Origin: Acidobacteriota bacterium
GTDB lineage: Bacteria; Acidobacteriota; Terriglobia; Terriglobales; Acidobacteriaceae
Length of the DNA: 64,000 nucleotides
NCBI GenBank assembly: GCA_031296115.1
Contig: JARLGI010000076.1
Span: 2,806-66,805 of the forward strand
Direction of reading: 5' to 3'
The notes below the pieces were generated by a model that saw only the letters and a program-made list of their open reading frames with translations, searched no databases and was not told the DNA's origin. Numbering within the stretch: the first letter of the stretch is position 1; each line of letters begins with the position of its first letter. The translations under genes and the position numbers were made by a program. Positions 16,697 to 64,000 of the stretch are shown in pieces.

Positions 16697-16734
16697 GATG
16701 ATTTCCCCGATTTCAAGAGCTCTTTGCGGCGATG

Positions 16735-16877: not shown

Positions 16878-16894
16878 CGCTAGAACTGCCCGTG

Positions 16895-19630: not shown

Positions 19631-19718
19631 AGGGGTCGTTTGAGCTAAGTACCGATATTACAAGGAAGAGCTGTGAGCCGTCAGCAGGACGCAGCAGCAG
19701 GGGCGCATCGTCCGCCTC

Positions 19719-19750
19719 AAAACAGCAAAAGGCGCAGCCGAAGCCGCGCC
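19719..19750 (-). terminator. rho-independent terminator after the bamD-like gene
   Basis: Minus strand: GGCGCGGC-ttcg-GCTGCGCC followed by TTTTGCTGTTTT. Confidence 0.65.
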
Positions 19751-19770
19751 TTGTCGAGAAACCTTTCCAG

Positions 19771-21345: not shown

Positions 21346-21387
21346 CCTAAACACCTCTGGGATTACTGCCTTCCATGCCACACCACA

Positions 21388-22062
21388 CTAGGCTCGCTGC
21401 AGCGTGGCTTCGTTGGCCGCCCTGAGCAGCCCTTCCACCTTTCGCCCCGGATCGCCATGACCGAAGATGTGACTCCCGGCAACGAAGATCTCCGCTCCAG
21501 CGCGCACCGCGGGCCCGATGGTGTCCAGGTCGATACCACCATCCATCTCGATACGAAAGTCGACACCCTTGGCGGCGCGCATGGTGGCCAGCTTGCGAAC
21601 CTTTTCCAGCGCCCCCGGAATAAACCGCTGGCCGCCAAAGCCGGGATTGACCGACATGACCAGCACAACGTCCACGATGTCGAGCACTTCGCCAAGCGTC
21701 TGCACCGTGGTGGCCGGATTGATCGCCACTCCAACCCGCGCCCCATGGCTGCGAATCAACTCCAGGGTGCGATTCAGGTGGATACAAGCTTCCTGATGCA
21801 CAACGATCGAATTGGCGCCCGCCGCGACGAAGGCAGGGATGTATTCGTCAGCGTCCTCGATCATCAGGTGGCAGTCCAAGGGCACTTCCACGGCCTTGCG
21901 CAGCGACTTGACCACCGGCGGCCCAATCGTGATATTGGGCACGAAATGGCCGTCCATCACGTCCACATGCAGCAGGGTTGCGCCTCCTCGGATCGCGGCA
22001 TTGGCGTCTTCCGCCAAGCGGGCGAAATCGGCCGATAATATGGACGGCGCTATCTCGATCAA
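21388..22062 (-). CDS. rpe: ribulose-phosphate 3-epimerase
   Basis: ..IAPSILSADFARL..LLHVDVMDGHFVPNITIGPPVV..VMSVNPGFGGQRFI..MDGGI... TTG at 22062 gives (M)IEIAPSIL, 224 aa. The longer ORF to 22281 adds an atypical 73-aa extension. Confidence 0.92.
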   Translation of the reverse strand: MIEIAPSILSADFARLAEDANAAIRGGATLLHVDVMDGHFVPNITIGPPVVKSLRKAVEVPLDCHLMIEDADEYIPAFVAAGANSIVVHQEACIHLNRTLELIRSHGARVGVAINPATTVQTLGEVLDIVDVVLVMSVNPGFGGQRFIPGALEKVRKLATMRAAKGVDFRIEMDGGIDLDTIGPAVRAGAEIFVAGSHIFGHGDPGRKVEGLLRAANEATLQRA

Positions 22063-22303
22063 GACACACTTCTCTCGCCAGGTTTCTGGGGAAATTCTAG
22101 CACGCAGGGTGGGTCTGGTGGGCTGTCTGCGGCGTCGATCGAGGCACGTCGCAGCCCGAGCGCCGGGAGCGCTACCGCTAACCGTGGCAAGCCGTGCCTT
22201 CACGGTCCCGGGGTATCCAAAACTTAAGTAGAGATTTAACAGGCTTTTCGCCTTCCATGATTTATCATGTGCATACCCCATTAAAAGGAAACCTTCGTCC
22301 CGA

Positions 22304-23827
22304 ATGAGAGTCTTCCCCGGTTTGCGCCGCCGATTGGCTCCCGTAGCCCTACTCTTCTGTTCCGCCCTGTCCTTTGGCTGTGATGGCCTACCAGCCGGAC
22401 AAACGCTTTGGATCCGGCTGAGCTCTCCGGTTTCCTCTTACAGTTCGAAACCCGGCGACCCCGTTCACGCGGTGCTGATTGAAGCGATCACCTGCGAGAA
22501 CGAAACGATTTTGCCCATCGGCACCAGCATTGAAGGCACAGTCCACTCGGTCCGCAAGGTGGGTTGGGGCATCGAGCATGAAACCGCTGCTTTGGACCTG
22601 CGGTTCACCCGTGCTGTGGTCACGCCAGACTCGTCACTCGCAATGACCGCAACGGTCGCGGAAGTGGAGAACGCTCGCGAGCAGGTCTCCACAAAAGGCG
22701 TCATCCAGGGAATCCGCAGCAGCGATTCGCCGCAGGGCCGCATTAACAGCCGGCTGCGTCACCTGCCGACCTTGAACCCTTATTCCGACGTTGGCCTGAT
22801 CGCCTTCAAAGCCACGTTTCCCATCTTTCCAGAACCGGAGATTTATTTTCCGGCGGGCACCGATGTTCGCATCCGGCTGAAGGAGCCGATCCGGGCGCCG
22901 GCAGCAGCGGCCGTCCAACCGGTGGAGAGCGCCGTCGTGAGCAACGAAGAGTTGGACGTGGAGCGCGCCGTTTCTTCTCTGCCGGAGCGCTCGACAACTC
23001 CCGCGATGCTGAACGCCGACGTGGTCAACCTGGCGTTCGTCGGTTCGCGCCAGGAAGTTGAGGACACCTTTCGGCAGGCCGGTTGGAGCACCAGCGACAC
23101 GTTTACCAAGCGCTCGTTCATGCACGATTTTTATGCCTTCCTCAACAACAGCGGCTACGCGCAGGCGCCGATGCGACCGTTTCTGCTGGAAGGTAAATCG
23201 GAGGACATGAGCTGGCAGAAGAGCCTGAACAGCTATGCCCGCCGCGACCATCTGCGCATCTGGCAATGGTCGCAAGCGCCGCAGGTGGAAACCGCGGATG
23301 CCCGGACGATATGGCTCAGTTCCTCCACGCATGACACGGGCGCGACCCTCTCACTGCGCCGTCATCAGTTCATCCACCACATCGCGCCCGACATCGACGA
23401 GGAACGCAGCAAGATCATTCGCGACCTGCAGGTTGCCGGTTGCGTGGAATCCGTCCACATGGCGCCACGGCCGGGGATGTCCAACCTTACCCAGAACGCC
23501 AACGGCGACCCGGTGCGCACCGACGGCGACCTGGCGATCGTGCTGCTCAAGCCGTGCCAACCCGTCGTTCCCGGACTGGCCGCCAACACCGCGCAGACCA
23601 AATTTAAGGCGGGCAATCACGTGTTCCGCTATTTCCGCCGCCAGATCCTCACCTTCCGCAGCGACATCTGGCGCGCCAACATCATCTACGGCATCTACGA
23701 CCTTGGCCGGATGAGCGTTGAAGCGATGCGCCACCATCCGGTCCCGCCGCCGATGCAGCAGGCCAAAGCCTTCGTCAAGCCAGCCGAGACAGACCTGAAG
23801 CCAGCACAGATCGAAGGACAACCGTAG
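22304..23827 (+). CDS. LssY C-terminal domain-like secreted protein
   Basis: Signal-like N-terminus. C-terminal half ..VVNLAFVGSRQEVEDTFRQAGWSTSD..YAQAPMRPFLLEGKSEDMSWQKS..RDHLRIWQW..STHDTG.. resembles the LssY_C family, from memory. Confidence 0.65.
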   Translation: MRVFPGLRRRLAPVALLFCSALSFGCDGLPAGQTLWIRLSSPVSSYSSKPGDPVHAVLIEAITCENETILPIGTSIEGTVHSVRKVGWGIEHETAALDLRFTRAVVTPDSSLAMTATVAEVENAREQVSTKGVIQGIRSSDSPQGRINSRLRHLPTLNPYSDVGLIAFKATFPIFPEPEIYFPAGTDVRIRLKEPIRAPAAAAVQPVESAVVSNEELDVERAVSSLPERSTTPAMLNADVVNLAFVGSRQEVEDTFRQAGWSTSDTFTKRSFMHDFYAFLNNSGYAQAPMRPFLLEGKSEDMSWQKSLNSYARRDHLRIWQWSQAPQVETADARTIWLSSSTHDTGATLSLRRHQFIHHIAPDIDEERSKIIRDLQVAGCVESVHMAPRPGMSNLTQNANGDPVRTDGDLAIVLLKPCQPVVPGLAANTAQTKFKAGNHVFRYFRRQILTFRSDIWRANIIYGIYDLGRMSVEAMRHHPVPPPMQQAKAFVKPAETDLKPAQIEGQP

Positions 23828-48143: not shown

Positions 48144-48159
48144 TGTGACGTAGGTCACT
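48144..48159. promoter_or_regulatory. CRP/FNR-family-like palindrome
   Basis: TGTGA-cgtagg-TCACT (9/10 to TGTGA-N6-TCACA), 109 nt upstream of the 48268 start. Confidence 0.3.
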
Positions 48160-48267: not shown

Positions 48268-49920
48268 ATGCCCGGGCAGCCGTTCCGTACTGGTAACAGA
48301 GTTCTGCCGTTTCTGGTTCTGGTTTTGGTGCTCTTCGCGACACGCGAGAGCCGCGCAATCCCTGCGTTTTCAAGAATGTACGGGACAAGCTGCAGCACCT
48401 GCCACATCGACTTTCCCAAGCTGAATGACTTCGGCAAGGCGTTTAAGGACGCGGGCTTCAAGTTCCCTAAAGACGACGAGTCGATGATCAAGATCCCGCC
48501 CGTCATGCTGGGCGCCCCGGCCAACGCGGAGCTCTGGCCGCACGCCATCTGGCCGGGCGTCATCCCAGGTCTACCGCCGATCGGCCTGCGCTACAACACC
48601 TATTTCCAGTACACTAGCACCAACCGCACAAATTTCAACCAGTTGCTGCCGCCCGGGACGGTGGCGCCATTCATTCCCACTACCGACTTCCAGACCGGCT
48701 TCTTCAGCATCTTCACCGCAGGAAACTTCGGCAGCGATATCGCCTTCTGGGTTGACGACGACATCAGTGTCAGCGGCGCCAACGCCAATGGCGGGTTGGG
48801 CGAGGCTTACCTCAAATTCGTCAACGTTGGGCGGCTGATGAAATTGCCGCCGTATCTGTTAAGTCTGCGGGTGGGTCAGGTGGAGCTCGACATACCGTTT
48901 ACCCAGTCGAAGTCGATCTGGATCAGCCCATACGACATTTACAGCCAGGCCAATATAGGCGCGGTGAATGGGGCGTTCCCTCTGCAACAGTTCGTTAACA
49001 ATGCGTTCACTTTTGCCGGATCAGGCAAAGGTATCGAACTCAGCGGCGGCCACTCGACTGGCGGGTACCACTACTCCGTTGCGTTCATCGACCAGGTCAC
49101 CACCCCAGGCCTATCCCAAGCTAACAACAACAACTACGTGCCGACGGCGACCGGCAGCAACCAGGGAGGGGTCGGTGTCGCTTCGGACGCAAACTTCAAG
49201 GACATCTACACGAATTTTCAATACCGCTTTAACCTTGAGCGCGACAAAGCGAGTCGCAACGCCATTCAAGCCGCCGGGCCGACGGGCCCGCGCGACCACA
49301 CTTACTTGAATGTCGGAAGCTTCTATTTATATGGACGCTCGGTACAGCGGCTATCGGGCTCAACCCTCGACGGCCTGCCTGCGGTCGTCACCGCACGTGA
49401 GCCCTTCTACCGCGTGGGGGGAAACTTCACCTTTAACTACCACTGCTGCCTGCAGTTCAACGGCCTGTGGATGTACGGGCACGACAACAACTTGTTGCCG
49501 GTGGACGCCAGCGGTATGCCAGTTCCTTTGCCGGTGAGCGGCACCACAACAGTGGGCTTGGTCTCCGGACGGCCAGCCACATTCAGTGGAGGCTTTGCCG
49601 ATGTGGAATGGCTGGCGTACCCCTGGATGATGGTTTTGATGCGCTATGACGGCGTAAACTCGACGTCCGACTACATAAACGGCCTGACGTCGGGAGGGTT
49701 CACAAACTCGCCCTTTAACGGGGCGGCCTATGCGACACGGAACCGGGTTACACCGGGTGTTCAGTTCCTCATCCACGCCAACATTAAGGCCTCGTTCGAG
49801 TATCAGTTCCGGCCGTCGCAGTCAGTCGTTATCGGTAGCAATCCCCGAACCGGTTATCCGGTGGCCATAAGCCCATTCCACACCAATACAGCCGTCGCAG
49901 GTTTAGAATTCGTGTATTAA
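48268..49920 (+). CDS. predicted outer-membrane beta-barrel protein with an N-terminal CxxCH haem-c motif
   Basis: ORF 48211..49920. ATG at 48268 behind GAGGAGGG. Signal peptide ..LFATRESRA, then IPAFSRMYGTSCSTCHIDFPKLNDFGKAFKDAGF. About 500 aa of G/N/Y/T-rich alternating sequence ending ..NTAVAGLEFVY (aromatic terminus). Confidence 0.7.
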   Translation: MPGQPFRTGNRVLPFLVLVLVLFATRESRAIPAFSRMYGTSCSTCHIDFPKLNDFGKAFKDAGFKFPKDDESMIKIPPVMLGAPANAELWPHAIWPGVIPGLPPIGLRYNTYFQYTSTNRTNFNQLLPPGTVAPFIPTTDFQTGFFSIFTAGNFGSDIAFWVDDDISVSGANANGGLGEAYLKFVNVGRLMKLPPYLLSLRVGQVELDIPFTQSKSIWISPYDIYSQANIGAVNGAFPLQQFVNNAFTFAGSGKGIELSGGHSTGGYHYSVAFIDQVTTPGLSQANNNNYVPTATGSNQGGVGVASDANFKDIYTNFQYRFNLERDKASRNAIQAAGPTGPRDHTYLNVGSFYLYGRSVQRLSGSTLDGLPAVVTAREPFYRVGGNFTFNYHCCLQFNGLWMYGHDNNLLPVDASGMPVPLPVSGTTTVGLVSGRPATFSGGFADVEWLAYPWMMVLMRYDGVNSTSDYINGLTSGGFTNSPFNGAAYATRNRVTPGVQFLIHANIKASFEYQFRPSQSVVIGSNPRTGYPVAISPFHTNTAVAGLEFVY

Positions 49921-49948
49921 CAGCTTGAGCTCTACGAAAGGAACATTC

Positions 49949-50524
49949 ATGAAGCGCAGCTTTCTACTGACTCTATTACTGGTTATCGCGGTAGCAGCCA
50001 CTGCTGTTGCGGGCACAATCGAAGGCAAAGTGTCGCCCGGCAAGTCGGTCGTCTACGTGGACACCATCCAGGGGAAAACATTTCCGGCACCGTCTCAGCA
50101 ACCCGTCATGGACCAGAAGGGGCTGGTATTTGGCCCGCACGTGATGGTCATTCAGCAGGGGACCACGGTCGAGTTCCTGAACAGCGACAATGTGCAACAC
50201 AACGTCTTCTGGCCCTCCATCAGCGGCAACAAGAAGCTCGGTCATAACCTCGGAACCTGGCCCAAGGGCGAGAAGCGTCCCTTCAAGTTCGACAATCCCG
50301 GTGTGGTCTCGCTGCTGTGCAACGTGCATCCCGAGATGGCGGGCTACATTATCGTCAGTCCGACGCCGTACTTTGCCGAGGCCGACGCCATTGGGAACTT
50401 CAAGATCGAAAACGTTCCTGACGGCAAGTACAACGTGGTTGCCTGGCACGAAGGCATGAAGCAGCAAACCAAGTCGGTGGATGTCGCCGGAACCGGCAAA
50501 GCCGATTTCACTCTCTCGAAATAG
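49949..50524 (+). CDS. secreted amicyanin/plastocyanin-like cupredoxin fused to a CarboxypepD_reg-like domain
   Basis: ORF 49925..50524; ATG at 49949 (MKRSFLLTLLL..). Candidate type-1 Cu ligands: VQHNVF and LLCNVHPEMAGYI (C-x2-H-x2-M). C-terminal ..GNFKIENVPDGKYNVVAWHE... Confidence 0.75.
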   Translation: MKRSFLLTLLLVIAVAATAVAGTIEGKVSPGKSVVYVDTIQGKTFPAPSQQPVMDQKGLVFGPHVMVIQQGTTVEFLNSDNVQHNVFWPSISGNKKLGHNLGTWPKGEKRPFKFDNPGVVSLLCNVHPEMAGYIIVSPTPYFAEADAIGNFKIENVPDGKYNVVAWHEGMKQQTKSVDVAGTGKADFTLSK

Positions 50525-50612: not shown

Positions 50613-52592
50613 ATGTTAAGTCGTTTCGCCAAGAAGATTGTCGACCGGGAATGGCTGAATACTAATTTTCCCTGCATGATGGCCTGCCCGGCGCACACCA
50701 ACGCCGGCCGGTATGTGTCGCTGATCGCGGAGGGGCGCTTCGAGGAGGCGTACCGCTACGCCCGCGATCCCAATCCCATGGCAAGTATCTGCGGCCGCGT
50801 GTGCGCCCACCCCTGCGAGACCGCCTGCCGGCGCGGCCAAATCGATCGCCCCATTTCCATTCGCGCCCTCAAGCGCTTCCTGACCGAGCGGCATGGGCCG
50901 GAGTCGCGGCACCCGGTTGCCCCCACGACCAGGCCGGCGGCCAAGCTGCCCTACAAAGTAGCGGTAATTGGAGGCGGTCCGGTGGGCCTTTCGGCGGCAC
51001 ACGATCTCGCGCTGCTGGGCTACTCCGTCACTATCTTCGAAGCCTCGCCGGTGGCCGGCGGAATGTTGTACCTCGGCATTCCTGAATACCGTCTGCCGCG
51101 AAGCGTGGTCGAGGCGCAGGTGCGTGAGATTCTCGAAACTGGCGACATCACGTTGCGCCTGAATGCCGTGGCCGGCCGCGACTTCACGGTAGGCGAACTA
51201 AGGCATCAGGGTTTTGACGCCGTGCTGATTGCCGTGGGTGCCCATCGCAGCCGCGACTTGTCGATACCGGGCGTCGATCTCGATGGGGTGCACCGCGGCA
51301 TCGAGTTTCTGCTCAACGTAAACCTCGGATACAAGTTCACCATCGGCAAGAAGGTACTGGTGATCGGGGGCGGCAACGTCGCCATGGACGTCGCCCGCTC
51401 CGCCGCTCGCGAAGTCCTGCGGCAGCACGATGCGCCGGGCGAGGTCACGCCGTCGGAAGAGAATGAGCAGGCTGTGGCCGCCCACGAGATGATGGACATC
51501 TCGCTCTCCGCTCTGCGTATGGGCGCGCGCGAAGTCGGCCTCGTCTGCCTGGAAAACCGCGATGAAATGCCGGCCGCCCTGGAAGAGATCGAGGAGGCGG
51601 AGACCGAAGGCATCATCATGCATCCGGGTTTCGGACCGAAGCGGGTGCTCGGGCGCGACGGCAAAGTCGTGGGCCTCGAATGCCTGAAGACCAAGTACGT
51701 TTTCGACGAGAACCACCGCTTCAACCCCGCGTTCTACGAAAACAGCGATACCCAGTTTGATTGCGACACCATCATTCTTTCGATCGGGCAGGCGCCCAAT
51801 CTCGACTTCCTGCGGCCGGAAGACGGCGTCCTGGTTTCGCCCCGGGGACTGGTCAACGTAAATCGAGACAGCTTGATGACCTCCGCTCCCGGTGTATTCG
51901 CCGGTGGCGACTGCGCCTTCGGACCGCGACTGATCATCGATAGCGTCGGCGACGGAAAGCGCGCTGCCGTAGGCATCGATGAGTACCTGCGAGGCTGCAA
52001 GCATCCCGAACCGGAGATTGAAGTACAGATTCTGGAGCGCTGGCAGATGGCGGCGGACTACATGAACATAAACCGCCAGCCCATCCCCATGCTGCCGCTG
52101 GACCGCCGCACCGGAATGACCGAGGTCGAGCTGTGCTACACCGAGCAGGAAGCCATGGCCGAGGCGCAGCGCTGCCTGAAGTGTTACATCAACACCATTC
52201 TCGAGGGCAGCGAACAGGACGGCACCGACTGCGTGCTCTGCGGCGGCTGTGTCGATGTTTGTCCGGAGAACTGCCTGGAACTGGTTTCGCTGGACCGCAT
52301 TCAGTTCGACACAAACGCCATCGACGCCATCGCGAACCACCCCGAGGCATTCAGTTTCGAACTCCAAGGCATACAACCGGCAGAGTTGGGCAGCATCGCG
52401 GGCACCGCCATGCTCAAGGACGAGACGCGGTGCATCCGTTGCGGACTGTGCGCGCTGCGCTGCCCGGCCAACACCATCACCATGGAGGCGTATCACTTCG
52501 TCGCAGCGGAACCGACTGGGCTCATCACCATTCAGAGCTTTGATGGGCCCAAGCCGGCCGCCGCGGCGGCGGCAGCAGGCCCCAAGCCATGA
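50613..52592 (+). CDS. GltD-like NAD(P)H-dependent FAD/Fe-S oxidoreductase with a C-terminal 2x[4Fe-4S] ferredoxin domain
   Basis: N-terminal Cys cluster (FPCMMACPAH..CGRVCAHPCETACRR). VAVIGGGPVGLSAAHDL and VLVIGGGNVAMDVAR (two Rossmann motifs). CVLCGGCVDVCP and CIRCGLCALRCP. No signal peptide or TM helix. Confidence 0.88.
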   Translation: MLSRFAKKIVDREWLNTNFPCMMACPAHTNAGRYVSLIAEGRFEEAYRYARDPNPMASICGRVCAHPCETACRRGQIDRPISIRALKRFLTERHGPESRHPVAPTTRPAAKLPYKVAVIGGGPVGLSAAHDLALLGYSVTIFEASPVAGGMLYLGIPEYRLPRSVVEAQVREILETGDITLRLNAVAGRDFTVGELRHQGFDAVLIAVGAHRSRDLSIPGVDLDGVHRGIEFLLNVNLGYKFTIGKKVLVIGGGNVAMDVARSAAREVLRQHDAPGEVTPSEENEQAVAAHEMMDISLSALRMGAREVGLVCLENRDEMPAALEEIEEAETEGIIMHPGFGPKRVLGRDGKVVGLECLKTKYVFDENHRFNPAFYENSDTQFDCDTIILSIGQAPNLDFLRPEDGVLVSPRGLVNVNRDSLMTSAPGVFAGGDCAFGPRLIIDSVGDGKRAAVGIDEYLRGCKHPEPEIEVQILERWQMAADYMNINRQPIPMLPLDRRTGMTEVELCYTEQEAMAEAQRCLKCYINTILEGSEQDGTDCVLCGGCVDVCPENCLELVSLDRIQFDTNAIDAIANHPEAFSFELQGIQPAELGSIAGTAMLKDETRCIRCGLCALRCPANTITMEAYHFVAAEPTGLITIQSFDGPKPAAAAAAAGPKP

Positions 52593-52607: not shown

Positions 52608-53099
52608 ATGTCTGACGACCCTAAACCAACCGTTCCCGACAGTCCCGAAGAGATGACCCGGCGCCAGTTCTTCATCAAGGTGGGTGTTGGCTCGGTCGCG
52701 GTCGCGGCCCTGGGCACCGCAGCCTTCGGCTATCAGTACCTGTCGCCGAATGTGTTGTATGAACCGTCGCCAGTGGTGGATGCCGGAAAGCCGGACCACT
52801 ACGCACCGGATTCCGTCACCCTCGACCCGCAGACGGCCATCTACGTGGTGCGCACGGCGGAAGGTTTCTTCGCACTGTCGGCCATCTGTACCCACCTCGG
52901 CTGCCTGACAGCTTACAAACCAGACCTCGGCATCATTGCCTGTCCCTGCCACGGCAGCAAGTTCAAGAAGGACGGTGTGAAGATTGAGGGACCGGCGCCA
53001 AGGCCGCTGCCCTGGCTGCGCATGTGGCTAAACGACGATGGCAACCTCATGGTGGACCGCGGCAATGCAATCGCAATCAAGCAACTGGTGAGGGTCTGA
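52608..53099 (+). CDS. Rieske [2Fe-2S] subunit of a cytochrome bc-type complex (Tat leader)
   Basis: [27 protein letters not shown]..(14)..CPCHGS. Confidence 0.92.
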
Positions 53100-53101: not shown

Positions 53102-53857
53102 ATGGCAAACACGGTTGATCAGCTGCTTGAACAAGTACGCGAAAACCGGATCTGGCGCTCCATCTTCCGCAGTGGCACCGGCGACAGCAATCTCCACAAG
53201 TCGTTGTTCGTGCAGCAGAATGTCTTTCTGCACCTGTTCTCCATCAAGGCGCGCAAGCGCACCCTGGAGTTCAGCGCCACCTGGTACCTGGGCGCGATGA
53301 CACTGGGAACTTTCCTCATCCTCGTCATCACCGGCATTTTGCTGATGTTGTACTACCATCCCTCCGTCCCGCAGGCCTATGCCGACATGAAGGATCTGCA
53401 GTTCGTGGTCTCGTCCGGTGTGTTCCTGCGTAACCTGCATCGCTGGTCGGCACACGCGATGGTGTTCCTGGTGTTCGCGCACATGTTCAAGGTGTTCTAT
53501 CGCGGGGCCTATCGCCCGCCGCGCGAATTCAACTGGGTCGTCGGGGTGGTGCTGCTTCTGGTTACCCTGCTGCTGAGCTACACCGGCTATCTGCTGCCCT
53601 GGGACCAACTTGCGTACTGGGCGGTTACCGTCGGAAGCAACATCGCGTCCGCGGTTCCGGTGATGGGTAGTAAGATCCGCTTCCTCATGCTGGGTGGAAC
53701 TGCGGTGAATGCGAACGCGTTGTTGCGCTTCTACGTCCTGCACTGCGTGATCCTGCCACTGGCGGCTATTTTGTTTATCGCCATCCATTTCTGGCGGATC
53801 CGCAAAGACGGCGGGATTTATGCCGGCGAGCCCGCGCCGGAAGTGGAGAGCAAATGA
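53102..53857 (+). CDS. cytochrome b (b6-like N-terminal, four-helix haem-binding subunit)
   Basis: ATG 2 nt after the Rieske stop. ..[22 protein letters not shown].. and ..[25 protein letters not shown].. supply the paired His ligands. Confidence 0.92.
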
Positions 53858-54558
53858 GCGAACCAAAAGATCTTGTTGCCGTCATGGATTCCGATGTTCG
53901 GAAGACGCCGCGGCGAATCGCCTTCATCACTAAGCGAACCTCGCCCCAGGTACGTGTACGCGATGAAGACCGGGTGATGACTTATCCCGAAGTTTTCTTT
54001 CGAGCGGCTGTCGCCATTCAGGTGCTCGCGATTGCGCTGGTCGTGACCTCTCTGTTGTGGGACGCGCCTCTGGAAGGCCTCGCCGACCCCATGCACACGC
54101 CGAACCCTGCGAAGGCACCCTGGTATTTTTTGGGCCTGCAGGAGTTGCTGCACTACTTCCCGCCAGTGGTGGCCGGCGTGCTCATACCCGGACTGGTGGT
54201 AATGGCGCTCATCATCATCCCGTACTTCAATATCAATGTGGAAGCTGAAGGCTTGTGGCTGCGCGACAAGGCAAAACGCCTGCGAATCTTCGGGATCGTG
54301 GTGGTGGTCTTCTGTATTTTTCTGGCGGTCTTCGACGTGTGGGTGGCGCTGGTACCAACCCTCATCGTAGCGGCCTTCATGCTGCTGGCGGCGCGAACCG
54401 ATCCGCAAACCGCAAAAGGATTCCGGCAATGGCTGGTGCGAAAACCGCTTTCCTTCTGGATCATGACCTGGTTCCTGGTTGAACTCTTCGTGCTAACCGC
54501 AATAGGAACCTTCTTCCGCGGCCCGGGATGGTCGTGGGTCCTGCCCTGGAGGGCCTGA
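53854..54558 (+). CDS. cytochrome b C-terminal domain / subunit IV-like protein
   Basis: ATGA overlap. ..[21 protein letters not shown].. motif, plus extra TM helices. Confidence 0.85.
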
Positions 54559-54564: not shown

Positions 54565-56616
54565 ATGAAAGACAAGCTCAAATCACTATGGCGGTTCTTC
54601 TTCGGAGACAGCGCGCGCGCCTTCGGCTCAGCAAGTCTTATCCTCCTGGCGCTGCTCGCCATCTCTCCGGCCAAAGACCACTTCAGCCAGTGGCGTCATT
54701 ACCAGAAGCAGTACCTGCACCTCATCCGCGGACGCGCCGATGCTGTCACTCTGGAGCGTCATTTCCAAGGCGGCATCCAGCAGATATGGATCCCCGAGCA
54801 GCAAGTGACCGACCGTTGCACGACCTGCCATCTCGGGCTGAAGGAAGCTAGTTTGAATGATGTCAGCGCGGTTGCGTTTCGCAAGCACCCTGTCATACCG
54901 CATTCGCTGACCGAGTTTGGCTGCACAACCTGCCATCGTGGACAGGGTGCCGCTACCACGGTCGAGGAGGCGCATAGCGCCACAGAACAATGGGAACAGC
55001 CGCTGCTTCGGGCGAAGTACATCGAATCCGGCTGCGGACAATGCCATCTGGAGAAGCAGACGGCCACTCCGTTCCTCAATCAGGGCCGGCAACTGATCTC
55101 CACTTCCGGCTGCACGAATTGTCACACCATCAAGCAGGCGGACGGAACGTACATCGTCCCCGAGGACGATCCACCGTCGCTGAAACATGTGGCCGACAAG
55201 ACGACCCGCGAGTGGGTGTATGCCTGGATCAAGGACCCTCAGGCGTATGCCAGCACGGCGACCATGCCGAACTACCATCTGAGCGACGACGACGCGCGCG
55301 ACATCTCGGCATTCATCATCGCGCAGAGTGCGCCCCTCGAGCCGCCACTCCAGCCAGTGAAGGCTGATGCAAAAGCCCCGGCCGACCCGGCCGCAGGCAC
55401 TTCGCTATACGGGCAGTCCTTCTGCGCGTCATGTCATGCCATGCAAAACGCTGCCGGAATGCTGGTCGGAGGAAATGTCGGGCCGGAGTTGACGGGCATC
55501 GGAACGAAGGCAAAGCCGGAATGGCTGCCGGATTGGGTGGCGAATCCGAACCACTATGATCCGGCAACGATGATGCCGCACTACCGCTTCGACGCCGCGC
55601 AAGTGGCAACCCTGGCCGGTTTCCTGGCGTCGAAGACGGAGCCGGATTTCCTCGCCAACGTACATCTTGACCCTGCCACACCGCAGCAGATTGAGCACGG
55701 CAAACGACTCGTCCTGGAGAACGGCTGTGCGAGCTGCCACGAGATTAACGGCATCAAGAAGCCGGAAAACTTTGCCCCCGAACTGAGCCGCATCGGCAGC
55801 AAGCCGATGTCGCAGCTCCTGTTCGTAGAGGGCGTGGAGCGCAGCCTTCCGGGATACGTTAGCGCCAAGGTGCGCAACCCGCGTGCCTTCGGCTCCTCGC
55901 TGAAGATGCCGCAGTTCAAGCTGACGCCACAGCAAGTGGATGCGATTACCACCGCGCTGTTGGCGCTCACCGACCGCGCGCAGACGCAACCACCTGCCAT
56001 GCGGATTGCCTCCGTCCAGCAGACAAAATATGAGCCCGCAGGGCACGCAGGCCAGCTCATGAAAGACCTGCGCTGCTTCACTTGTCACATGATCAACGGG
56101 CATGGCGGCGACATGGCGCCCGACCTCACGTGGGAAGGGACCGCAGTGCAGCGTGATTGGCTGACGCAATTCCTCAAGAATCCGGAGACTTTGCGGCCCG
56201 CGCTGATCCGGCGCATGCCTAAGTTCAACCTGACCGAGGCGGAGATCAATTCTCTCGCCGACTACATGATGACCGTGTATCAGACGCCGCAGTTTGATCG
56301 CGATTGGTTGCCGGTCTCGGAGTTCACGCCCGCTACGGCCGAGCAGGGGCGGCAGCTCTTCTACTCGAAGTTTGCCTGCCAGTCATGCCACATCGCCGAC
56401 TTCGCCAAAGACAAGGGCTACATTGGCCCTGCCCTGGCCGGCACTGGCAAGCGGTTCAATGCAGCCTGGGTGTATCACTGGCTGAAAGATCCGCAAGCGC
56501 TGCGCCCGGGAACCATTGAGCCCAATCAGCACATGACCGACGATGAGGCGCGCGCGTTGACTGCGTTCCTGATGTCGCTGAAGTCCACCGGATCCAAGGA
56601 GGTGGCAAAGAAATGA
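54565..56616 (+). CDS. membrane-anchored octahaem c-type cytochrome
   Basis: N-terminal TM helix. Eight CxxCH motifs: CTTCH, CTTCH, CGQCH, CTNCH, CASCH, CASCH, CFTCH, CQSCH. The later ones are followed by MP(N/H/Q/K)(Y/F)-type distal Met segments. Confidence 0.88.
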   Translation: MKDKLKSLWRFFFGDSARAFGSASLILLALLAISPAKDHFSQWRHYQKQYLHLIRGRADAVTLERHFQGGIQQIWIPEQQVTDRCTTCHLGLKEASLNDVSAVAFRKHPVIPHSLTEFGCTTCHRGQGAATTVEEAHSATEQWEQPLLRAKYIESGCGQCHLEKQTATPFLNQGRQLISTSGCTNCHTIKQADGTYIVPEDDPPSLKHVADKTTREWVYAWIKDPQAYASTATMPNYHLSDDDARDISAFIIAQSAPLEPPLQPVKADAKAPADPAAGTSLYGQSFCASCHAMQNAAGMLVGGNVGPELTGIGTKAKPEWLPDWVANPNHYDPATMMPHYRFDAAQVATLAGFLASKTEPDFLANVHLDPATPQQIEHGKRLVLENGCASCHEINGIKKPENFAPELSRIGSKPMSQLLFVEGVERSLPGYVSAKVRNPRAFGSSLKMPQFKLTPQQVDAITTALLALTDRAQTQPPAMRIASVQQTKYEPAGHAGQLMKDLRCFTCHMINGHGGDMAPDLTWEGTAVQRDWLTQFLKNPETLRPALIRRMPKFNLTEAEINSLADYMMTVYQTPQFDRDWLPVSEFTPATAEQGRQLFYSKFACQSCHIADFAKDKGYIGPALAGTGKRFNAAWVYHWLKDPQALRPGTIEPNQHMTDDEARALTAFLMSLKSTGSKEVAKK

Positions 56617-57344
56617 AACGCGCGTTGATCGCTTATTGCGGAATTACGTTGCTGCTGACGTCAGGATGCTCACGCAAGAGTAAGCAGCCCCCTCAACTTC
56701 AGGCCACCGCAAAGGGGGCGGCGATTGTCGAGTCCAGCGGCGGCAAGCAGATTGGCTACATCGGATTGCCACTCGACCAGCCGGTTGTGGTGCAAGTGAA
56801 CGACGCTTCCGGAGCAGCGGTCGCGGGGGCGGCGGTTTATTTCAGCGGAGCGCCTGGAGTTAGTTTTGAGCCTCCCGCGGCGCTGACCGATTCCAGCGGG
56901 CAAGTCACCAGCGCGGTTTCGCTGGGACAGCAGGCCGGGCGCTACAAGATCAGCGCCAGCACGCGGGACGCATCTGGCAAGAACGTGGAGATTGCGATCG
57001 AGGAAGCGGCGCTGGGCTACCAGCAAACCCTGGGAGCGCAACTCAACGCACAGTACTGTATTCGCTGCCACGACCCAGAATCGAGTCCACTGCGGGTATC
57101 CAACATGGACAACCTGTCGGTGAAGCCGCATCCTTTCACGGAGGGCGAGACTCTCAACAAGATGACGGACGCGGACCTGATTGCCCTCATTAGCCACGGC
57201 GGCCCGGCGTTGAACAAGTCGGCGGAAATGCCGCCTTGGGGTTACACGCTCTCCAAGAGCGACATCGCCGCGCTGGTGGCTTACATCCGGGCCGTTGCCG
57301 ATCCGCCGTATGAAGCCGGTGGGCTGGTGTACGCCCAGAAGTGA
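56613..57344 (+). CDS. monohaem cytochrome c lipoprotein with an Ig-like N-terminal domain
   Basis: ATGA overlap. MKRALIAYCGITLLLTSGC (lipobox). CIRCH. ..EMPPWGY... Confidence 0.8.
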   Translation: MKRALIAYCGITLLLTSGCSRKSKQPPQLQATAKGAAIVESSGGKQIGYIGLPLDQPVVVQVNDASGAAVAGAAVYFSGAPGVSFEPPAALTDSSGQVTSAVSLGQQAGRYKISASTRDASGKNVEIAIEEAALGYQQTLGAQLNAQYCIRCHDPESSPLRVSNMDNLSVKPHPFTEGETLNKMTDADLIALISHGGPALNKSAEMPPWGYTLSKSDIAALVAYIRAVADPPYEAGGLVYAQK

Positions 57345-59675: not shown

Positions 59676-60596
59676 CTAGAAGCCGGCGAGGTTGGGAGTG
59701 AGCTTGCGGTAGCCGTGATTCGTGGCCCAGAGGTCGAGTGAGACGGCGGCGAGTTCGTCGACGATGGGGACAGCCAGGCCGTCCTTTGTCATATCGACAG
59801 TCTTGAGGTAGTGGTGACAAGTTTCGCAGGCATCGATGCGGACATGCGGCGTTTCCTGGGGAGTGAAGACAGGAAGCAAGTCAAAGCGGTCCTCACCGCA
59901 AGCGGGGCAGACAGCCCGCAGGAAACTCCATTCATACATACAAAGTGAGCAGACGAGCGAGCGTCGCGCACCGTGGTCTTGGTCGCGGAGAACTGCACAG
60001 ATGGGCTCGGAGGCACAGATGGGGCAGATGGCGTGGCCCATGGCGGCCGAGTTGCTATATCCGGACTGAGCGAGCCATTCGGCGTAGGGCTGGAGGAAAG
60101 CAACCGCGATGAAACGATCCGCAAGCGACGAGTCACCGCTGTTCGCCGGCTCTTGTGCGAAGTCCCCATTCCAGAAACGTGTGAGGAGGTGCGCCTGTGC
60201 GACCTCGTCCGAAGCGGCGATGTCCGAAGCGCGATCACGCATGGCAGCAGGAGAGATTCCAGCGAGCGACCCCGCAAAACCGGGAAACAGCGGAAGCACG
60301 CTTTGCAGGAGCAGAGGCCAGCCATCGGTATCGGCAAGACTGCTGGAAAAGCTCCGATCCTTTGGCTTGCGCGACGAGGATGCGTCCCCGCCAGCCGTAG
60401 AGATCGAAAGAGAATCGAAGACGTGTTGTTGCGAAAACGCAAGACGAGCGTAGAAGCGAAGGAGTTCGACGCCTCCCGGATAACGCTCCGACAGTTCGTA
60501 GGCGCGTTGGATCCTCTGAGGAAAGGCAGGCCGAGGTGGTAGTTCCGGGATGAGTGGTTGATCGCCGAGCACGGTGAAAGGGTTATCGCCGCTCAT
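59676..60596 (-). CDS. fdhE: formate dehydrogenase accessory protein FdhE
   Basis: Cys-pair motifs CPICAS..CSLC..CPACGE..CETCHHYLK. Confidence 0.9.
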   Translation of the reverse strand: MSGDNPFTVLGDQPLIPELPPRPAFPQRIQRAYELSERYPGGVELLRFYARLAFSQQHVFDSLSISTAGGDASSSRKPKDRSFSSSLADTDGWPLLLQSVLPLFPGFAGSLAGISPAAMRDRASDIAASDEVAQAHLLTRFWNGDFAQEPANSGDSSLADRFIAVAFLQPYAEWLAQSGYSNSAAMGHAICPICASEPICAVLRDQDHGARRSLVCSLCMYEWSFLRAVCPACGEDRFDLLPVFTPQETPHVRIDACETCHHYLKTVDMTKDGLAVPIVDELAAVSLDLWATNHGYRKLTPNLAGF

Positions 60597-60681
60597 TGTT
60601 CCAAGCCTGTTTAGTTCCGCAACGGATCCTCGGTTATGAAACCAATCCTACTTCACGGTACGATTGAGGCACCTCGGGAGA

Positions 60682-61371
60682 TTACTTCTTAGCGGCCGAT
60701 GCACCGGTGACGCGGTCCAGCCACAAGCGGTGATGATAACGGGCCCAGGATTCGGAGACCTCGCCGCGGATTACCGAGGAAAACCCGCCGCGCACTACTG
60801 CAGTGCCCATATAAACATGGATGATAAAGCCGCCGACGGTGAACAGGAACGCTACCGGATGAAGAAACGCGGACAGCAAACGAAGCCAGCGGAGGCTCCA
60901 AGGCAAATAGTCGCTAAACCAGAGAACCAGTCCGGTGGCGAGCAGAGTGAGGCCAGCCCAGAACATCAGCCAGAACAGGTACTTCTGGCCGAGATTGAAA
61001 CGGTCAACGGGCGCGAAGCGGTCGAAACCGCGAGCCGCCTGAAGCGGATGCATCTCTTCTTCTTCATTGCGAACGTAGGCGCGTATCGTCTTCCTCCATT
61101 CCAGGTCTGTCGGTGTAATGCGCATGTCGGGCAGCCACATGCGATACATGTAGACGACAGCGGCTGTGAAGATCAGCCCCATCCAGGGGTGAACGGCGCG
61201 GCTGACCGGGCCACCACCGAGCATCATGGCAACCCACCACATCCAGGGTGTCCAGAAGGCGAGGCCGCTGAGCAGAAGGTAGATATAAGACAACGCGGCT
61301 GTCCAGTGCACCAGGCGTTCGGTGAAGTTGTAACGAAGTACGTTTCCTTGAGCGACCTTTACCGGTTTCAT
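60682..61371 (-). CDS. fdnI: formate dehydrogenase-N gamma subunit (cytochrome b556)
   Basis: ..RYNFTERLVHWTAALSYIYLLLSG..VHPWMG..FLHPVAF..IHVYM.. (four TM helices with His ligands). Confidence 0.88.
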   Translation of the reverse strand: MKPVKVAQGNVLRYNFTERLVHWTAALSYIYLLLSGLAFWTPWMWWVAMMLGGGPVSRAVHPWMGLIFTAAVVYMYRMWLPDMRITPTDLEWRKTIRAYVRNEEEEMHPLQAARGFDRFAPVDRFNLGQKYLFWLMFWAGLTLLATGLVLWFSDYLPWSLRWLRLLSAFLHPVAFLFTVGGFIIHVYMGTAVVRGGFSSVIRGEVSESWARYHHRLWLDRVTGASAAKK

Positions 61372-61382
61372 AGTCGTCCTCT

Positions 61383-62267
61383 TCAGCGTCCTGCGTCTGC
61401 CTGCTTAGCCTTGTCGTCTTCCGGGACGTGCTTCGGGCCAAAGCGAAGGTAATGGACAAAGGTACCGATGATCCCGCCAACGATGGCGATATTACCGATC
61501 CATTTCAGCGGGCCCTTCCAGATTTCCACCGCGAATGAGACGCTGGGGTCTTTCGGAAGGCCGTAAGCCTCAGGGTTCTTGCCAAAGGCGAGAATGGAGA
61601 CCACCCCGGTACCGCTGACGCCCGGAGGATCGTACACCGCCGCGTCGAGAAATCCTGCAGTTTGCAACTGGGCGACGCGCGACTTCGCTTTCTGTAGCAG
61701 TACTTCCTTGGTCCCGAAGGTGAGACAGTTCGTCGGGCAGGCCTTGATGCAGGCAGGCTCCAGCCCGACGGAGACGCGGTCCACGCAAAGCGTACATTTG
61801 TAGACCTTCTTGGTCTGCCGGCTCATCTTAGGAACGTTGAATGGACAGCCGGCAATGCAATAGCCGCAGCCGATGCAGTTGTCCTGCTGGAAATCGACGA
61901 TACCGTTGTTGTATTGGACGATCGCGCCCGGTGCAGGACAGGCCTTCAGGCATCCCGGGTCGGCGCAATGCATGCACTGGTCCTTGCGGAGGAGCCAGTG
62001 GAAAGCGCCATCGTCGGTCTCATGCTCATTGAACTTGATGAGGTTCCAGAAGCTCGGCGTGGTGTCCGGCATGGTCTGGTAGGTGCCGATCTGCACCGTG
62101 GTTTCCGGGGGCAGGTCGTTCCATTCCTGACAAGCTACTTCGCAAGCTTTGCAGCCGATGCAGGCCGATGTGTCGATGAGCTTGGCAACGACAGGTGCGC
62201 TGCGGATGCCCGGCGCAGGGGTGGAACTTGCGGACATCGCGCGAATTTCGAGAACTTTTCCAGCCAT
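61383..62267 (-). CDS. fdnH: formate dehydrogenase-N beta subunit (4x[4Fe-4S], C-terminal TM anchor)
   Basis: ..VAKLIDTSACIGCKACEVACQEWN..CMHCADPGCLKACP..CIGCGYCIAGCPF..CTLCVDRV..ACIKACP... C-terminal helix GNIAIVGGIIGTFVHYL. Confidence 0.93.
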   Translation of the reverse strand: MAGKVLEIRAMSASSTPAPGIRSAPVVAKLIDTSACIGCKACEVACQEWNDLPPETTVQIGTYQTMPDTTPSFWNLIKFNEHETDDGAFHWLLRKDQCMHCADPGCLKACPAPGAIVQYNNGIVDFQQDNCIGCGYCIAGCPFNVPKMSRQTKKVYKCTLCVDRVSVGLEPACIKACPTNCLTFGTKEVLLQKAKSRVAQLQTAGFLDAAVYDPPGVSGTGVVSILAFGKNPEAYGLPKDPSVSFAVEIWKGPLKWIGNIAIVGGIIGTFVHYLRFGPKHVPEDDKAKQADAGR

Positions 62268-62276
62268 GGTCTCCTC

Positions 62277-64000
62277 CTATGCCTTCTCCAGCTTTACAAG
62301 GAAGCCCTTGTATTCTGGTGCGAAGGAGTTGGGATCGACGACGCTGTGCGTCACCAGGTTGGCGATTGAGCCCTCCTGGTCGCCGGCGCCAAAGAAGCCC
62401 CAGTGGATCGGCATGCCGATCTGGTAGACCTTCTTTCCCGCGATGGTCATGGGCTTGATGCGCCTGGTGACCATGGCCTTGCCCACGATGGAACCGCGAG
62501 CCGAGGTGACGCGAACGTATTGCGTGCTCTTGATGCCTTTCTCCGCGGCGAGTTCTTCCGGGATCTCGACGAAAAATTCGGGCTGCTCCTGCAGGTTGTA
62601 CGGGTTGTTCTTGGTCCAATAGTGGAAATGCTCGGTGAGGCGGTAAGTCGTTGCGACGATGGGATACTCGTCGGGCTTGCCCAGCTTGTCCCATTGCGTC
62701 TTGAAGGGCTTGGCCGCCGGGTTGGAGCTCTGCCCGTCAGGATGCAGCGGGTTTTGCACGGGCGACTCCATGGGCTCGTAATGCTCTGTCCATGGGCCTT
62801 CCACGAACTGGCCCGGCACGAACAGCCGGGCAACGCCTTCGGGGTTCATGATGAATGCACCCATGCCGGCTTCCGGCGGAGAGTCGGGCTTGTAGTCGGG
62901 AACGTCGCCAATCCACTTGTTGCCATTCCACTTAATGTCGGCGCGAGTGGGATCCCACGGTTGTCCCGTCGCGTCGGCGGAACAGCGGTTGTACATGACC
63001 CGGCGATTGGCCGGCCAGTTGAAGGCCCACTCCGAGTAGCGGCCGAGACCGCTTGGGTCAGCCCCATTCCGGCGCTGGGTGAGATTGCCGGCTTGCGTGT
63101 AGGAACCGATGTAGAGCCAGTTCCCGCTTAGGGTAGAACCGTCGGCACGGGCGTCGAGGAACTTCCCGAGTTGGTCGCCTGCCTTGACGGCGACGACTTT
63201 CGGGTCCTTTTCGTCCATGACGTCGGTGATGGCCCAGCCGTTGATCTCCTTGGCAACCTCTTCCAGCGCCGGCTTGTTTGGACTGGTGTACCACCAGTTA
63301 AGCGCCAGCACCGGGTCGGGATACTTGCCACCTTCCTTCTGGTAGAGCTCGCGCACCTTGAGGAAGATGCGGGCGATGATTTCCTGGTCCGGCTTGGCAT
63401 CTCCGGGCGGGTCGAGAGCTTTGTATTTCCAGGCAATCCAGCGGGCGGAGTTGGTGAACGAGCCATCCTTCTCGGCAAAGTTGGCGGCCGGCAACAGGAA
63501 GACCTCGGTCTTCACATCTTCCGGCTTGCCGCCGTTGAGCCACAGGACTCTCTCGCTCCAGAAGGCGGCGGTTTCCGTCTCGAAATTCTCGGCCACCACC
63601 AACCACTTGAGCTTGCTGAGGGCGGCAATGGCTTTGCGCGAATGAGGTCCGTTGCAGACGGGGTTCATGCCGAAGCTGAACAGCCCGTCCATTTGCCCTT
63701 CGTACATGTGATCGAACATGTACGCCCAACTCCAGTTCTGGTATGTGCCGGGAGCAGCGCCGACGGGAAGCTTGGGGTGGAGATTGAAGCCGAAATCGTT
63801 CTCCTGGGTGGCGTTCTTCCCGTAATAAGCCTTGTACTGACTCACTACAAAGCGATCATAGTTCGCCATGAAATTCATGACGCCCGGGCGTAGCGGTTTG
63901 GGTCGGACGGCGTTGAGGTAATCTTCGAACTTGGCCTGGTCGGCTTTCTGAATGGCGATGTAGCCGCAGATGTTGTGGTACGCCATCCCACAGTCAGTGC
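62277..64000 (-). CDS. fdnG: formate dehydrogenase-N alpha (molybdopterin) subunit, C-terminal ~575 aa; the 5' part lies beyond the window
   Basis: ORF 62277..63986, with the frame staying open to 64000. ..GMNPVCNGPHS..WLVVAENFETETAAFW..TTYRLTEHFHYWTKN..VTSARGSIVGKAMVTRRIKP..IGMPIHWGF.. Confidence 0.93.
   Translation of the reverse strand, partial: TDCGMAYHNICGYIAIQKADQAKFEDYLNAVRPKPLRPGVMNFMANYDRFVVSQYKAYYGKNATQENDFGFNLHPKLPVGAAPGTYQNWSWAYMFDHMYEGQMDGLFSFGMNPVCNGPHSRKAIAALSKLKWLVVAENFETETAAFWSERVLWLNGGKPEDVKTEVFLLPAANFAEKDGSFTNSARWIAWKYKALDPPGDAKPDQEIIARIFLKVRELYQKEGGKYPDPVLALNWWYTSPNKPALEEVAKEINGWAITDVMDEKDPKVVAVKAGDQLGKFLDARADGSTLSGNWLYIGSYTQAGNLTQRRNGADPSGLGRYSEWAFNWPANRRVMYNRCSADATGQPWDPTRADIKWNGNKWIGDVPDYKPDSPPEAGMGAFIMNPEGVARLFVPGQFVEGPWTEHYEPMESPVQNPLHPDGQSSNPAAKPFKTQWDKLGKPDEYPIVATTYRLTEHFHYWTKNNPYNLQEQPEFFVEIPEELAAEKGIKSTQYVRVTSARGSIVGKAMVTRRIKPMTIAGKKVYQIGMPIHWGFFGAGDQEGSIANLVTHSVVDPNSFAPEYKGFLVKLEKA

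Follow-up and report, generated by a model that had tools for sequence, protein, structure and literature searches.

What does a predicted outer-membrane porin with a haem c motif near its N terminus do beside a blue-copper protein and a complete Rieske/cytochrome b operon in a peat bacterium? We addressed this question for a locus in the second half of a 64,000-nucleotide (nt) stretch, hereafter referred to as the window, of contig JARLGI010000076.1 from a peat-soil acidobacterium (Acidobacteriota bacterium, GCA_031296115.1; 3.75 Mb, 93.6% complete). Its class, the Terriglobia, ranks among the most abundant bacterial groups of permafrost soils and acidic peat, and its members are usually seen as sugar-degrading heterotrophs. 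On balance, the locus probably encodes a Cyc2-type haem-porin and a dedicated cupredoxin that would together form the outer-membrane and periplasmic arm of a b6f-like, NAD(P)-linked Rieske/cytochrome b complex. The wiring of porin, cupredoxin, and Rieske/cytochrome b operon is well supported. The direction in which electrons would travel through it is graded more cautiously below.

The porin gene and its haem motif

The first gene of the locus, located on the plus strand at positions 48268 to 49920, encodes a protein of 550 amino acids (aa). Judged by its signature, its homology to Cyt572, and its predicted fold, it is a putative Cyc2/Cyt572-type fusion of a monohaem cytochrome c with an outer-membrane porin of 16 strands. 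An AGGAGG Shine-Dalgarno sequence lies 7 nt before its ATG; the reading frame stays open upstream as far as a GTG at 48211, a start that has no Shine-Dalgarno support. The stop codon TAA (49918 to 49920) is followed exactly 28 nt on by the next ATG at 49949. Residues 1 to 30 constitute a predicted Sec-type signal peptide ending in ESRA/IPAF, where the slash marks the cleavage site. This site aligns residue for residue with the Edman-verified site A-x-A/YPGF of Cyt572.

The signature AIPAFSRMYGTSCSTCHIDFPKL (residues 30 to 52, nt 48355 to 48423) is composed, in this order, of AIPAFSRMY, GTS, the haem site CSTCH, IDF, and PKL. The haem site (residues 42 to 46, nt 48391 to 48405) represents the sole CxxCH of the protein and is found at residue 12 of the predicted mature form. 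Locus counts given here and below refer to the best 80 of 416 loci in species-representative genomes, and counts of conserved residues refer to the 79 porin relatives and 78 cupredoxins that were extracted. Exactly one CxxCH, positioned inside the signature, was present in all 79 porins; P[KQR]L after the haem site (in the window, CSTCH-IDF-PKL) and an aromatic last residue, here at the end of the C terminus GLEFVY, were likewise kept in 79 of 79. The pattern P.F.R.[YT].{2,6}C..CH had a single match when all six frames of the bacterium's own genome (7.5 million residues) were scanned, and this match was the porin gene. Because of this single genome-wide match and the complete conservation among relatives, the haem motif is not fortuitous.

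These results agree with the initial annotation, which was made from the letters and their open reading frames (ORFs) and had described a 550-aa protein with a signal peptide, a single CSTCH within 20 residues of the mature N terminus, and a beta-barrel with the aromatic terminus GLEFVY. Its reservation that homologs might generally lack the CxxCH is answered by the retention of the motif in every relative. From these sequence features, we infer that the protein binds haem and is located in the outer membrane. Beyond H46, no Met or His that might serve as the distal haem ligand was conserved across the superfamily.

Two further features of the porin were noticed. A vicinal Cys-Cys pair at residues 392 and 393 (nt 49441 to 49446) is placed in a barrel hairpin and occurs in 48 of the 79 family members. 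An acidic motif, FWVDDDIS, with its three aspartates at residues 163 to 165 (nt 48754 to 48762), is specific to the acidobacterial clade, in which DDD was found in 53 of 79 sequences. By analogy with the Asp pairs modeled in Cyc2 of Acidithiobacillus ferrooxidans, it may be a metal-binding site.

Relationship to Cyc2 and Cyt572

Searches of the porin against Pfam and NCBIfam returned no family, and sequence searches of the PDB, performed with the single protein as well as with a profile, returned no match. Relatives are nevertheless numerous, amounting to more than 2,600 matches in clusters at 90% identity and to 2,462 clusters at 50% identity (E ≤ 1e-3), all of which carry the database name "hypothetical protein." Cyc2 proteins have been defined by a signal peptide, a single CXXCH near the N terminus, and a 16-strand porin (Keffer et al. 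2021; PMC8406198). An upstream AXPXFAR[Q/K][T/Y] was termed unique to Cyc2, PXL follows four residues past CXXCH, a length of at least 365 aa is required, and the published screening filter was PXFAR[Q/K][T/Y] (PMC8406198). The sequence AIPAFSRMY of the window porin agrees with this motif at five of seven fixed positions, with S in place of A and M in place of Q/K. The exact form AIPAFAR[QK]Y was found in 11 of the 79 orthologs and in nearly all distant relatives, and the motif variants fall inside one clade with 100% support. The published filter FAR[Q/K][T/Y] misses genuine Cyc2 relatives that carry FSRMY or FARMY.

For comparison with a purified protein, we turned to Cyt572 of Leptospirillum, whose N terminus was determined by Edman degradation as YPGFARKYNF and whose haem site is CSFCH (Jeans et al. 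2008, via PMC13741234). Its genes were obtained by back-translating YPGFARKYNF and scanning metagenome contigs. Six contigs bear Cyt572 genes coding for 546 to 577 aa, one of them with the published cleavage site AANA/YPGF. The window porin and Cyt572 shared 47% identity over 49 residues in BLASTP (E, 3e-11), in an alignment that spans the leader's end, the motif, the haem site and PxL as well as a GxxFKDxGF stretch. Profile comparison by hhalign extended this relationship: the profile of the acidobacterial family matched Cyt572 with 96.5% probability (E, 1e-9; 181 columns), and that of the superfamily did so with 99.1% (E, 7e-19), in an alignment of 329 columns that extends deep into the barrel. 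In the tree, the porins of Acidobacteriota formed one clade with 100% support, well apart from relatives of 420 to 520 aa. An earlier network study had grouped Cyt572 with homologs from Acidobacteria and Nitrospira (PMC10654088).

A structure predicted by AlphaFold2 from an alignment of 89 diverse sequences reached a mean pLDDT (predicted local distance difference test score) of 76.2 and a pTM (predicted template modeling score) of 0.78 and closes into a barrel of 16 long strands. A first model was discarded; it was computed from a shallow alignment at 71 to 88% identity and had a pLDDT of 42. When the retained model was compared with the PDB by Foldseek, the top 48 matches were all 16-strand porins of the general trimeric-porin fold, including OmpF, OmpU, PorB, Omp32, Omp-Pst1, and similar proteins, with a best E value of 4e-13 and target-normalized template modeling scores of 0.69 or less. 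The same 16-strand porin fold has been reported for Cyc2 models (PMC8406198). The signature, the homology to Cyt572 in BLASTP and hhalign, and the predicted 16-strand fold provide good support for placing the window porin in the known Cyc2/Cyt572 superfamily as a divergent new member. The initial annotation had named no characterized member, and this statement has to be revised, since the protein is a homolog of Cyt572. Purified members of the family oxidize Fe(II), as does every member characterized so far (PMC8406198, PMC13692758, PMC13741234).

The cupredoxin partner

The second gene (49949 to 50524, plus strand) encodes a 191-aa protein with a signal peptide which, based on Pfam, NCBIfam, and PDB matches, is predicted to be a secreted type-1 copper cupredoxin inserted in a CarboxypepD_reg/transthyretin-like beta-sandwich. 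The Pfam family Copper-bind was matched with 27.5 bits (threshold, 21.2), fn3_3 also passed, and CarboxypepD_reg remained just below its threshold. The PDB matches comprise plastocyanin, amicyanin, and the cupredoxin domains of copper nitrite reductases, with which the ligand loops align. The full type-1 ligand set that had been proposed for this protein, together with its position 28 nt downstream of the porin, was confirmed as H84, C124, H127, and M130 (CNVHPEM), and H/C/H/M was kept in all 78 relatives. The protein presumably binds copper through these residues. When residues 45 to 140 were excised in silico, the fn3_3 match grew to positions 4 to 69 of 75 and CarboxypepD_reg rose to 37.3 bits (threshold, 32.3). 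The cupredoxin domain (approximately residues 52 to 137) is thus, by sequence, placed between the first strands and the remainder of the sandwich. Both domains that had been described initially are present; their arrangement as a simple fusion did not hold, the copper domain being an insertion.

The cupredoxin gene was found directly 3' of the porin gene in 78 of the 80 loci; it lay upstream in one, and one contig was too short. We also inspected six porin relatives of approximately 27% identity from other lineages. Each has a CarboxypepD_reg protein of 198 to 257 aa nearby, encoded one or two genes downstream in five of the six and five genes upstream in the sixth (P0199), and the Copper-bind match was faint or weak in three of these six proteins. 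The pair of porin and cupredoxin is the conserved core of the system. Among distant relatives, L084 (9396 to 10517) and L095 (8344 to 9444) carry between the porin and cupredoxin genes a gene for 366 to 373 aa that came close to the threshold of PF10634 (P19-type periplasmic "Fe2+ transport protein"; 20.3 bits; cutoff, 21). At L082 (3645 to 11570) and L093 (8735 to 12311), a distant porin and its cupredoxin-sandwich protein stand beside COX2-like (CuA) proteins, without a Rieske/cytochrome b complex, and L093 additionally has a polyferredoxin-like protein nearby. With its COX2-like neighbors, the front end recurs in a second type of wiring.

The Rieske/cytochrome b operon

Six genes continue from the porin-cupredoxin pair without a break, resulting in an operon of eight genes, all on the plus strand. 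The first of the six (50613 to 52592) encodes a predicted cytoplasmic GltD-like NAD(P)/FAD iron-sulfur subunit of 659 aa whose C terminus forms a 2x[4Fe-4S] ferredoxin domain. It is recognized by the Pfam families Fer4_20, Pyr_redox_2, and Fer4 and by NCBIfam NF009410 (449.9 bits), and it contains two CxxCxxCxxxCP motifs. It is followed by a Rieske [2Fe-2S] subunit (52608 to 53099), identified by Pfam, NCBIfam, and its motifs CTHLGC and CPCH, with a twin-arginine signal (RRQFF), and by a b6-type four-helix cytochrome b (53102 to 53857; Pfam Cytochrome_B, E 1.3e-45), which matched the NCBIfam ExtP-like model with 263.8 bits, below the cutoff of 290. The C-terminal part of cytochrome b is encoded separately as a subunit IV-like membrane protein (53854 to 54558; Cytochrom_B_C, 26.2 bits; cutoff, 20.7), for which a weak ExtQ-like match was obtained. 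The last two genes were assigned by Pfam and motifs, the former also by NCBIfam. They encode a membrane-anchored octahaem cytochrome c with eight CxxCH (54565 to 56616) and a probable lipoprotein that combines an Ig-like (Big_1) domain with a single haem c motif, CIRCH (56613 to 57344).

The complete eight-gene operon was present in 50 of the 80 loci. The same Rieske/cytochrome b block also follows the porins of approximately 27% identity in three of the six other lineages sampled. The genes that flank the operon in the window, coding for an esterase, GH3, ABC1, and FDH-N, were not conserved at orthologous operons, and the block therefore acts as a self-contained cassette. On the minus strand at 59676 to 64000, an FDH-N-type formate dehydrogenase operon (FdnG, partial; FdnH; FdnI; FdhE) is oriented convergently to the Rieske/cytochrome b operon, with a gene for an ABC1/UbiB-like kinase between the two. 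A functional island leading from formate dehydrogenase to the Rieske/cytochrome b complex was considered and dropped, as the adjacency of FDH-N is specific to this genome and absent at orthologous loci.

All five parts that make up the NAD(P)-linked Rieske/cytochrome b clusters of anammox type are contiguous in the window, in a likeness to Kuenenia at the level of architecture. The function of such complexes, which have so far been studied in anammox bacteria, is an open question (PMC12954380). In the literature that we searched, there was no paper describing the operon reported here. Neither the sandwich-inserted cupredoxin, nor a module joined to an NAD(P)-linked Rieske/cytochrome b operon, nor its spread in peat Acidobacteriota was described there.

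Distribution and paralogous pair-only loci

Across the order, the occurrence of the module was patchy; it was present in 42 of the 301 genomes sampled and in 22 of 60 genera. The best 80 loci derive from bogs, palsas, fens, and Danish soils, and all of them belong to metagenome-assembled genomes (MAGs). Porin identity across families of Acidobacteriota ranged from 62 to 88%, which is very high for a porin. Copies in three MAGs labeled Binatia (L054), Verrucomicrobiia (L060), and Limnocylindrales (L065) were 65 to 74% identical to the proteins of Acidobacteriota, and the one included in the tree, L065, nests within the Acidobacteriota clade; these copies are probably due to mis-binning, or possibly to recent transfer. 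In one genome of the order (G288:C6:694052-695684), the porin gene is broken by an in-frame TAG into two pieces and is likely a pseudogene or the product of a sequencing error.

Paralogous copies comprising only the porin and the cupredoxin accounted for 28 of the 80 loci. In 26 of these 28, a gene for a dihaem cytochrome c of approximately 420 aa lies directly upstream of the pair (e.g., L024, 8752 to 10020, and L029, 8702 to 9943). The dihaem gene was also seen upstream of some full operons (L004, L007, L008, L009, L018, L023, and L026); it is absent from the window. Three pair-only loci are near genes for an aa3-type oxidase or the assembly factor CtaG. Since COX1 was located within 10 kb of only two of the pair-only loci, the link of the paralogs to an oxidase is weaker than that to the dihaem cytochrome. 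In many genomes, a pair-only locus coexists with a full operon.

The bacterium's own genome encodes two haem-copper oxidases and many multihaem cytochromes. Large multihaem ORFs with 19, 16, 11, 10, 9, and 8 CxxCH were noticed outside the window on contigs C3 (approximately 15496 to 22400), C10, C80, C109, and C104, three of them clustered on C3. They could belong to a separate extracellular electron-transfer system.

A putative upstream regulatory site

Approximately 109 nt before the porin start codon, at 48144 to 48159, lies a CRP/FNR-type palindrome, TGTGACGTAGGTCACT, which agrees with TGTGA-N6-TCACA at nine of ten positions. Allowing up to one mismatch, 27 of 49 full-operon loci had the palindrome at the conserved distance, compared with 1 of 29 loci that were pair-only or cut. 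With up to two mismatches, these numbers were 36 of 49 and 5 of 29. The background per 500 nt was 0.024 sites for up to one mismatch and 0.14 for up to two. Because its position is conserved at full operons, the palindrome points to control of the operon by a regulator of the CRP/FNR family. Scans for promoters with the sigma-70 and sigma-54 consensus sequences revealed no sites above background.

Direction of electron flow

The initial annotation had suggested a minimal trans-outer-membrane electron conduit tied to the Rieske/cytochrome b operon. Family membership and the conserved linkage support this suggestion, which corresponds to the role assumed for the Cyc2/Cyt572 family; its substrate and direction, we infer. 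In the mechanism that we favor, an external redox species, most likely iron, would reduce the haem of the barrel, from which electrons would proceed to the cupredoxin and to the c-type haems. These would be followed by the Rieske protein and the quinone site, the b haems, the iron-sulfur clusters, FAD, and finally NAD(P). The octahaem and monohaem cytochromes c would be situated on the periplasmic side and the GltD-like NAD(P)/FAD/iron-sulfur subunit on the cytoplasmic side. By analogy, the external substrate is probably iron, because every characterized member of the family oxidizes Fe(II).

Inward flow, that is, the oxidation of Fe(II) or another external reductant, we place just short of an even chance. 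It is favored because of the precedent set by the family, the likeness to cyc2-cyc1-rus, and the coexistence of oxidase-linked paralogs with Rieske/cytochrome b-linked copies. The Rieske/cytochrome b complex would in this case run in reverse or confurcate, comparable to the arrangement of rus and petI in A. ferrooxidans.

It should be noted that a number of points weigh against this interpretation. Rieske/cytochrome b complexes normally oxidize quinol and reduce plastocyanin-type carriers. Moreover, the typical potential of a Met-ligated type-1 copper would make the entry of electrons from uncomplexed Fe(II) unfavorable at the pH of bogs. We know of no experimentally studied member of the acidobacterial porin clade. 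The genome at hand has the Rieske/cytochrome b-linked copy only, with no oxidase in the operon. No RuBisCO was found in this genome (93.6% complete), so that uphill NAD(P)H production is not evidently required here for its classic purpose, CO2 fixation. With regard to the family itself, the window porin does not pass the strict filter PXFAR[Q/K][T/Y], and Cyt572 is distant in the tree, with a branch length of 3.4 changes per column. In the published Cyc2 phylogeny, function was regarded by its authors as least certain for the divergent Cluster 3 (PMC8406198).

Outward flow is a serious contender, although a less probable one than inward flow. In its specific form, which we regard as tentative, menaquinol would be oxidized in the normal manner and the high-potential electron would pass through the c haems, the cupredoxin, and the haem of the barrel to an external acceptor such as soluble Fe(III), Mn(III/IV), or oxidized humics. 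For the low-potential electron, the destination might be NAD(P)+, reached via the GltD-like subunit in a quinone-based bifurcation of the kind proposed for anammox complexes; alternatively, the flavoprotein might feed NAD(P)H in. A b6f-like architecture with a carrier of the plastocyanin family is the normal forward arrangement. The hosts are bacteria of acidic peat and bogs, where Fe(III), soluble at bog pH, is a high-potential acceptor and would serve as an outlet. The own genome is consistent with this direction in its lack of RuBisCO, its single copy of the module, its two haem-copper oxidases, and its many multihaem cytochromes. So is the adjoining operon for the quinone-reducing FDH-N, but this adjacency is not kept in orthologous loci. 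The conserved CRP/FNR-type box would fit anaerobic or redox control. Furthermore, anammox complexes with an NAD(P) subunit have been proposed to couple the reduction of NAD(P)+ to a high-potential acceptor (PMC12954380), and this bifurcation hypothesis calls for just such an outlet. On the other hand, no protein of the Cyc2 family has been shown to act as a reductase, and the paralogs linked to the dihaem cytochrome c or to an oxidase make sense only with electrons moving inward.

A more far-reaching idea, which we consider unlikely but worth stating, is that the operon is a self-contained, quinone-based bifurcating (or confurcating) machine. The electrons of menaquinol would be split between NAD(P)+, reached via the GltD-like subunit, and extracellular iron, reached via the octahaem cytochrome c, the cupredoxin, and the Cyc2-type porin. 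If true, peat Acidobacteriota would directly link the external redox state of iron, the quinone pool, and NAD(P)H energetically. The operon would also provide the first genetic identification of a high-potential partner for an NAD(P)-linked Rieske/cytochrome b complex of the anammox type.

A role as a channel or sensor, in which the porin imports iron, copper, or another metal while haem and cupredoxin shift the redox state of the metal for import, in the manner of a ferrireductase or ferroxidase, or report the external redox state and have no part in respiration, is improbable. The predicted fold is that of diffusion porins, the near-threshold P19-type "Iron_transport" gene (PF10634) lies between porin and cupredoxin in several distant relatives, and other lineages have two-component regulators ahead of the module. 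However, the module is tightly co-operonic with a complete respiratory Rieske/cytochrome b complex containing nine c haems, the operon is without an inner-membrane metal transporter, and a conservation of 62 to 88% is very high for a porin. For a metal or redox uptake gate, which the initial annotation had put forward as an alternative, nothing specific was found in support. An ordinary porin with a chance CxxCH and no haem, to which the absence of a Pfam or NCBIfam family for the protein might seem to point, has a negligible probability and is ruled out in practice by the conservation data, since the motif and its 20 conserved flanking residues are invariant in 79 of 79 relatives and at 27% identity, the motif context is single in the whole genome, and the protein is homologous to purified Cyt572.

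The operon suggests a previously undescribed route that links external iron with the quinone and NAD(P) pools. A conserved outer-membrane cytochrome of the iron-oxidase type, connected to the respiratory chain, would make Terriglobia candidates for a part in the iron cycling of peat, a process that bears on carbon stabilization and on the release of greenhouse gases. In addition, the periplasmic end of an NAD(P)-linked Rieske/cytochrome b complex is tied genetically here to c haems, a cupredoxin, and a haem-porin, from which hypotheses for testing in vitro can be derived.

Comparison with known systems

The MtrCAB, PioAB, MtoAB, and Geobacter Pcc systems share with the window porin the principle that electrons cross the outer membrane via haem in a beta-barrel. 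They employ a separate periplasmic cytochrome with ten or more haems, threaded into a much larger barrel of approximately 26 strands. The window porin, in contrast, has a single haem motif fused to a predicted 16-strand barrel and is therefore not of the MtrAB/PioAB type. Of similar build are the neutrophilic Cyc2 proteins of Cluster 1, such as Mariprofundus Cyc2PV-1 and Ghiorsea Cyc2TAG1_1, in which architecture, signature, and 16-strand barrel are as described here. These have Fe(II) oxidase activity upon heterologous expression (PMC8406198, PMC13692758). By description, they differ in their length of 389 to 439 aa and in belonging to autotrophic iron oxidizers, and their descriptions mention neither a cupredoxin partner nor an operon for a Rieske/cytochrome b complex.

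Cyt572, from Leptospirillum group II and placed in Cyc2 Cluster 3, has many features in common with the window porin. In both, the signal peptide is cut immediately before x-P-x-F-A/S-R-x-Y, one CxxCH is found approximately 12 residues into the mature protein with PxL four residues later, and a GxxFKDxGF stretch is present. They also have in common a similar length (546 to 577 compared with 550 aa) and a 16-strand porin barrel with an aromatic last residue. They differ in that BLASTP aligns the cytochrome domain only and very long branches separate the clades. On the short Cyt572 contigs, no cupredoxin or Rieske/cytochrome b genes were found. The periplasmic carrier of Leptospirillum is described as cytochrome 579 (PMC13741234), whereas the window locus has a cupredoxin. 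Likewise, the host of Cyt572 is an extremely acidophilic autotroph and that of the window a RuBisCO-less peat acidobacterium.

In the inner-membrane part, cytochrome b and subunit IV came nearest, among curated models, to those of Geobacter ExtP and ExtQ, just below threshold. In architecture, the operon is like the anammox complexes of Kuenenia (Kuste4569-4574 and Kustd1480-1485), which combine a b6-like four-helix cytochrome b, a subunit IV-like protein, and a Rieske protein with a multihaem cytochrome c that takes the position of cytochrome f and with a cytoplasmic subunit that is a putative NAD(P) oxidoreductase (PMC12954380). The Kuenenia complexes have neither an outer-membrane porin-cytochrome nor a cupredoxin. 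An HAO-like octahaem protein is part of one of the two.

The arrangement as a whole recalls A. ferrooxidans. As in the window locus, the rus operon of this organism (cyc2-cyc1-coxBACD-rus) leads from an outer-membrane monohaem cytochrome-porin to a periplasmic blue-copper protein, and cyc1 beside cyc2 resembles the dihaem cytochrome c gene beside the porin in pair-only loci. Its petI operon (cycA1-sdrA1-petA1B1C1) supplies the second branch, a Rieske/cytochrome b operon with an NAD-binding protein (PMC10654088). The coexistence of pair-only loci and full operons in one genome is thus reminiscent of rus (downhill) and petI (uphill). The cupredoxin of the window is plastocyanin/amicyanin-like and sandwich-inserted, whereas A. 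ferrooxidans uses rusticyanin. Likened here to A. ferrooxidans by description, the window operon unites with its porin a b6f-like complex with a split cytochrome b, an octahaem cytochrome c, and a GltD-like iron-sulfur flavoprotein, all encoded in a single operon.

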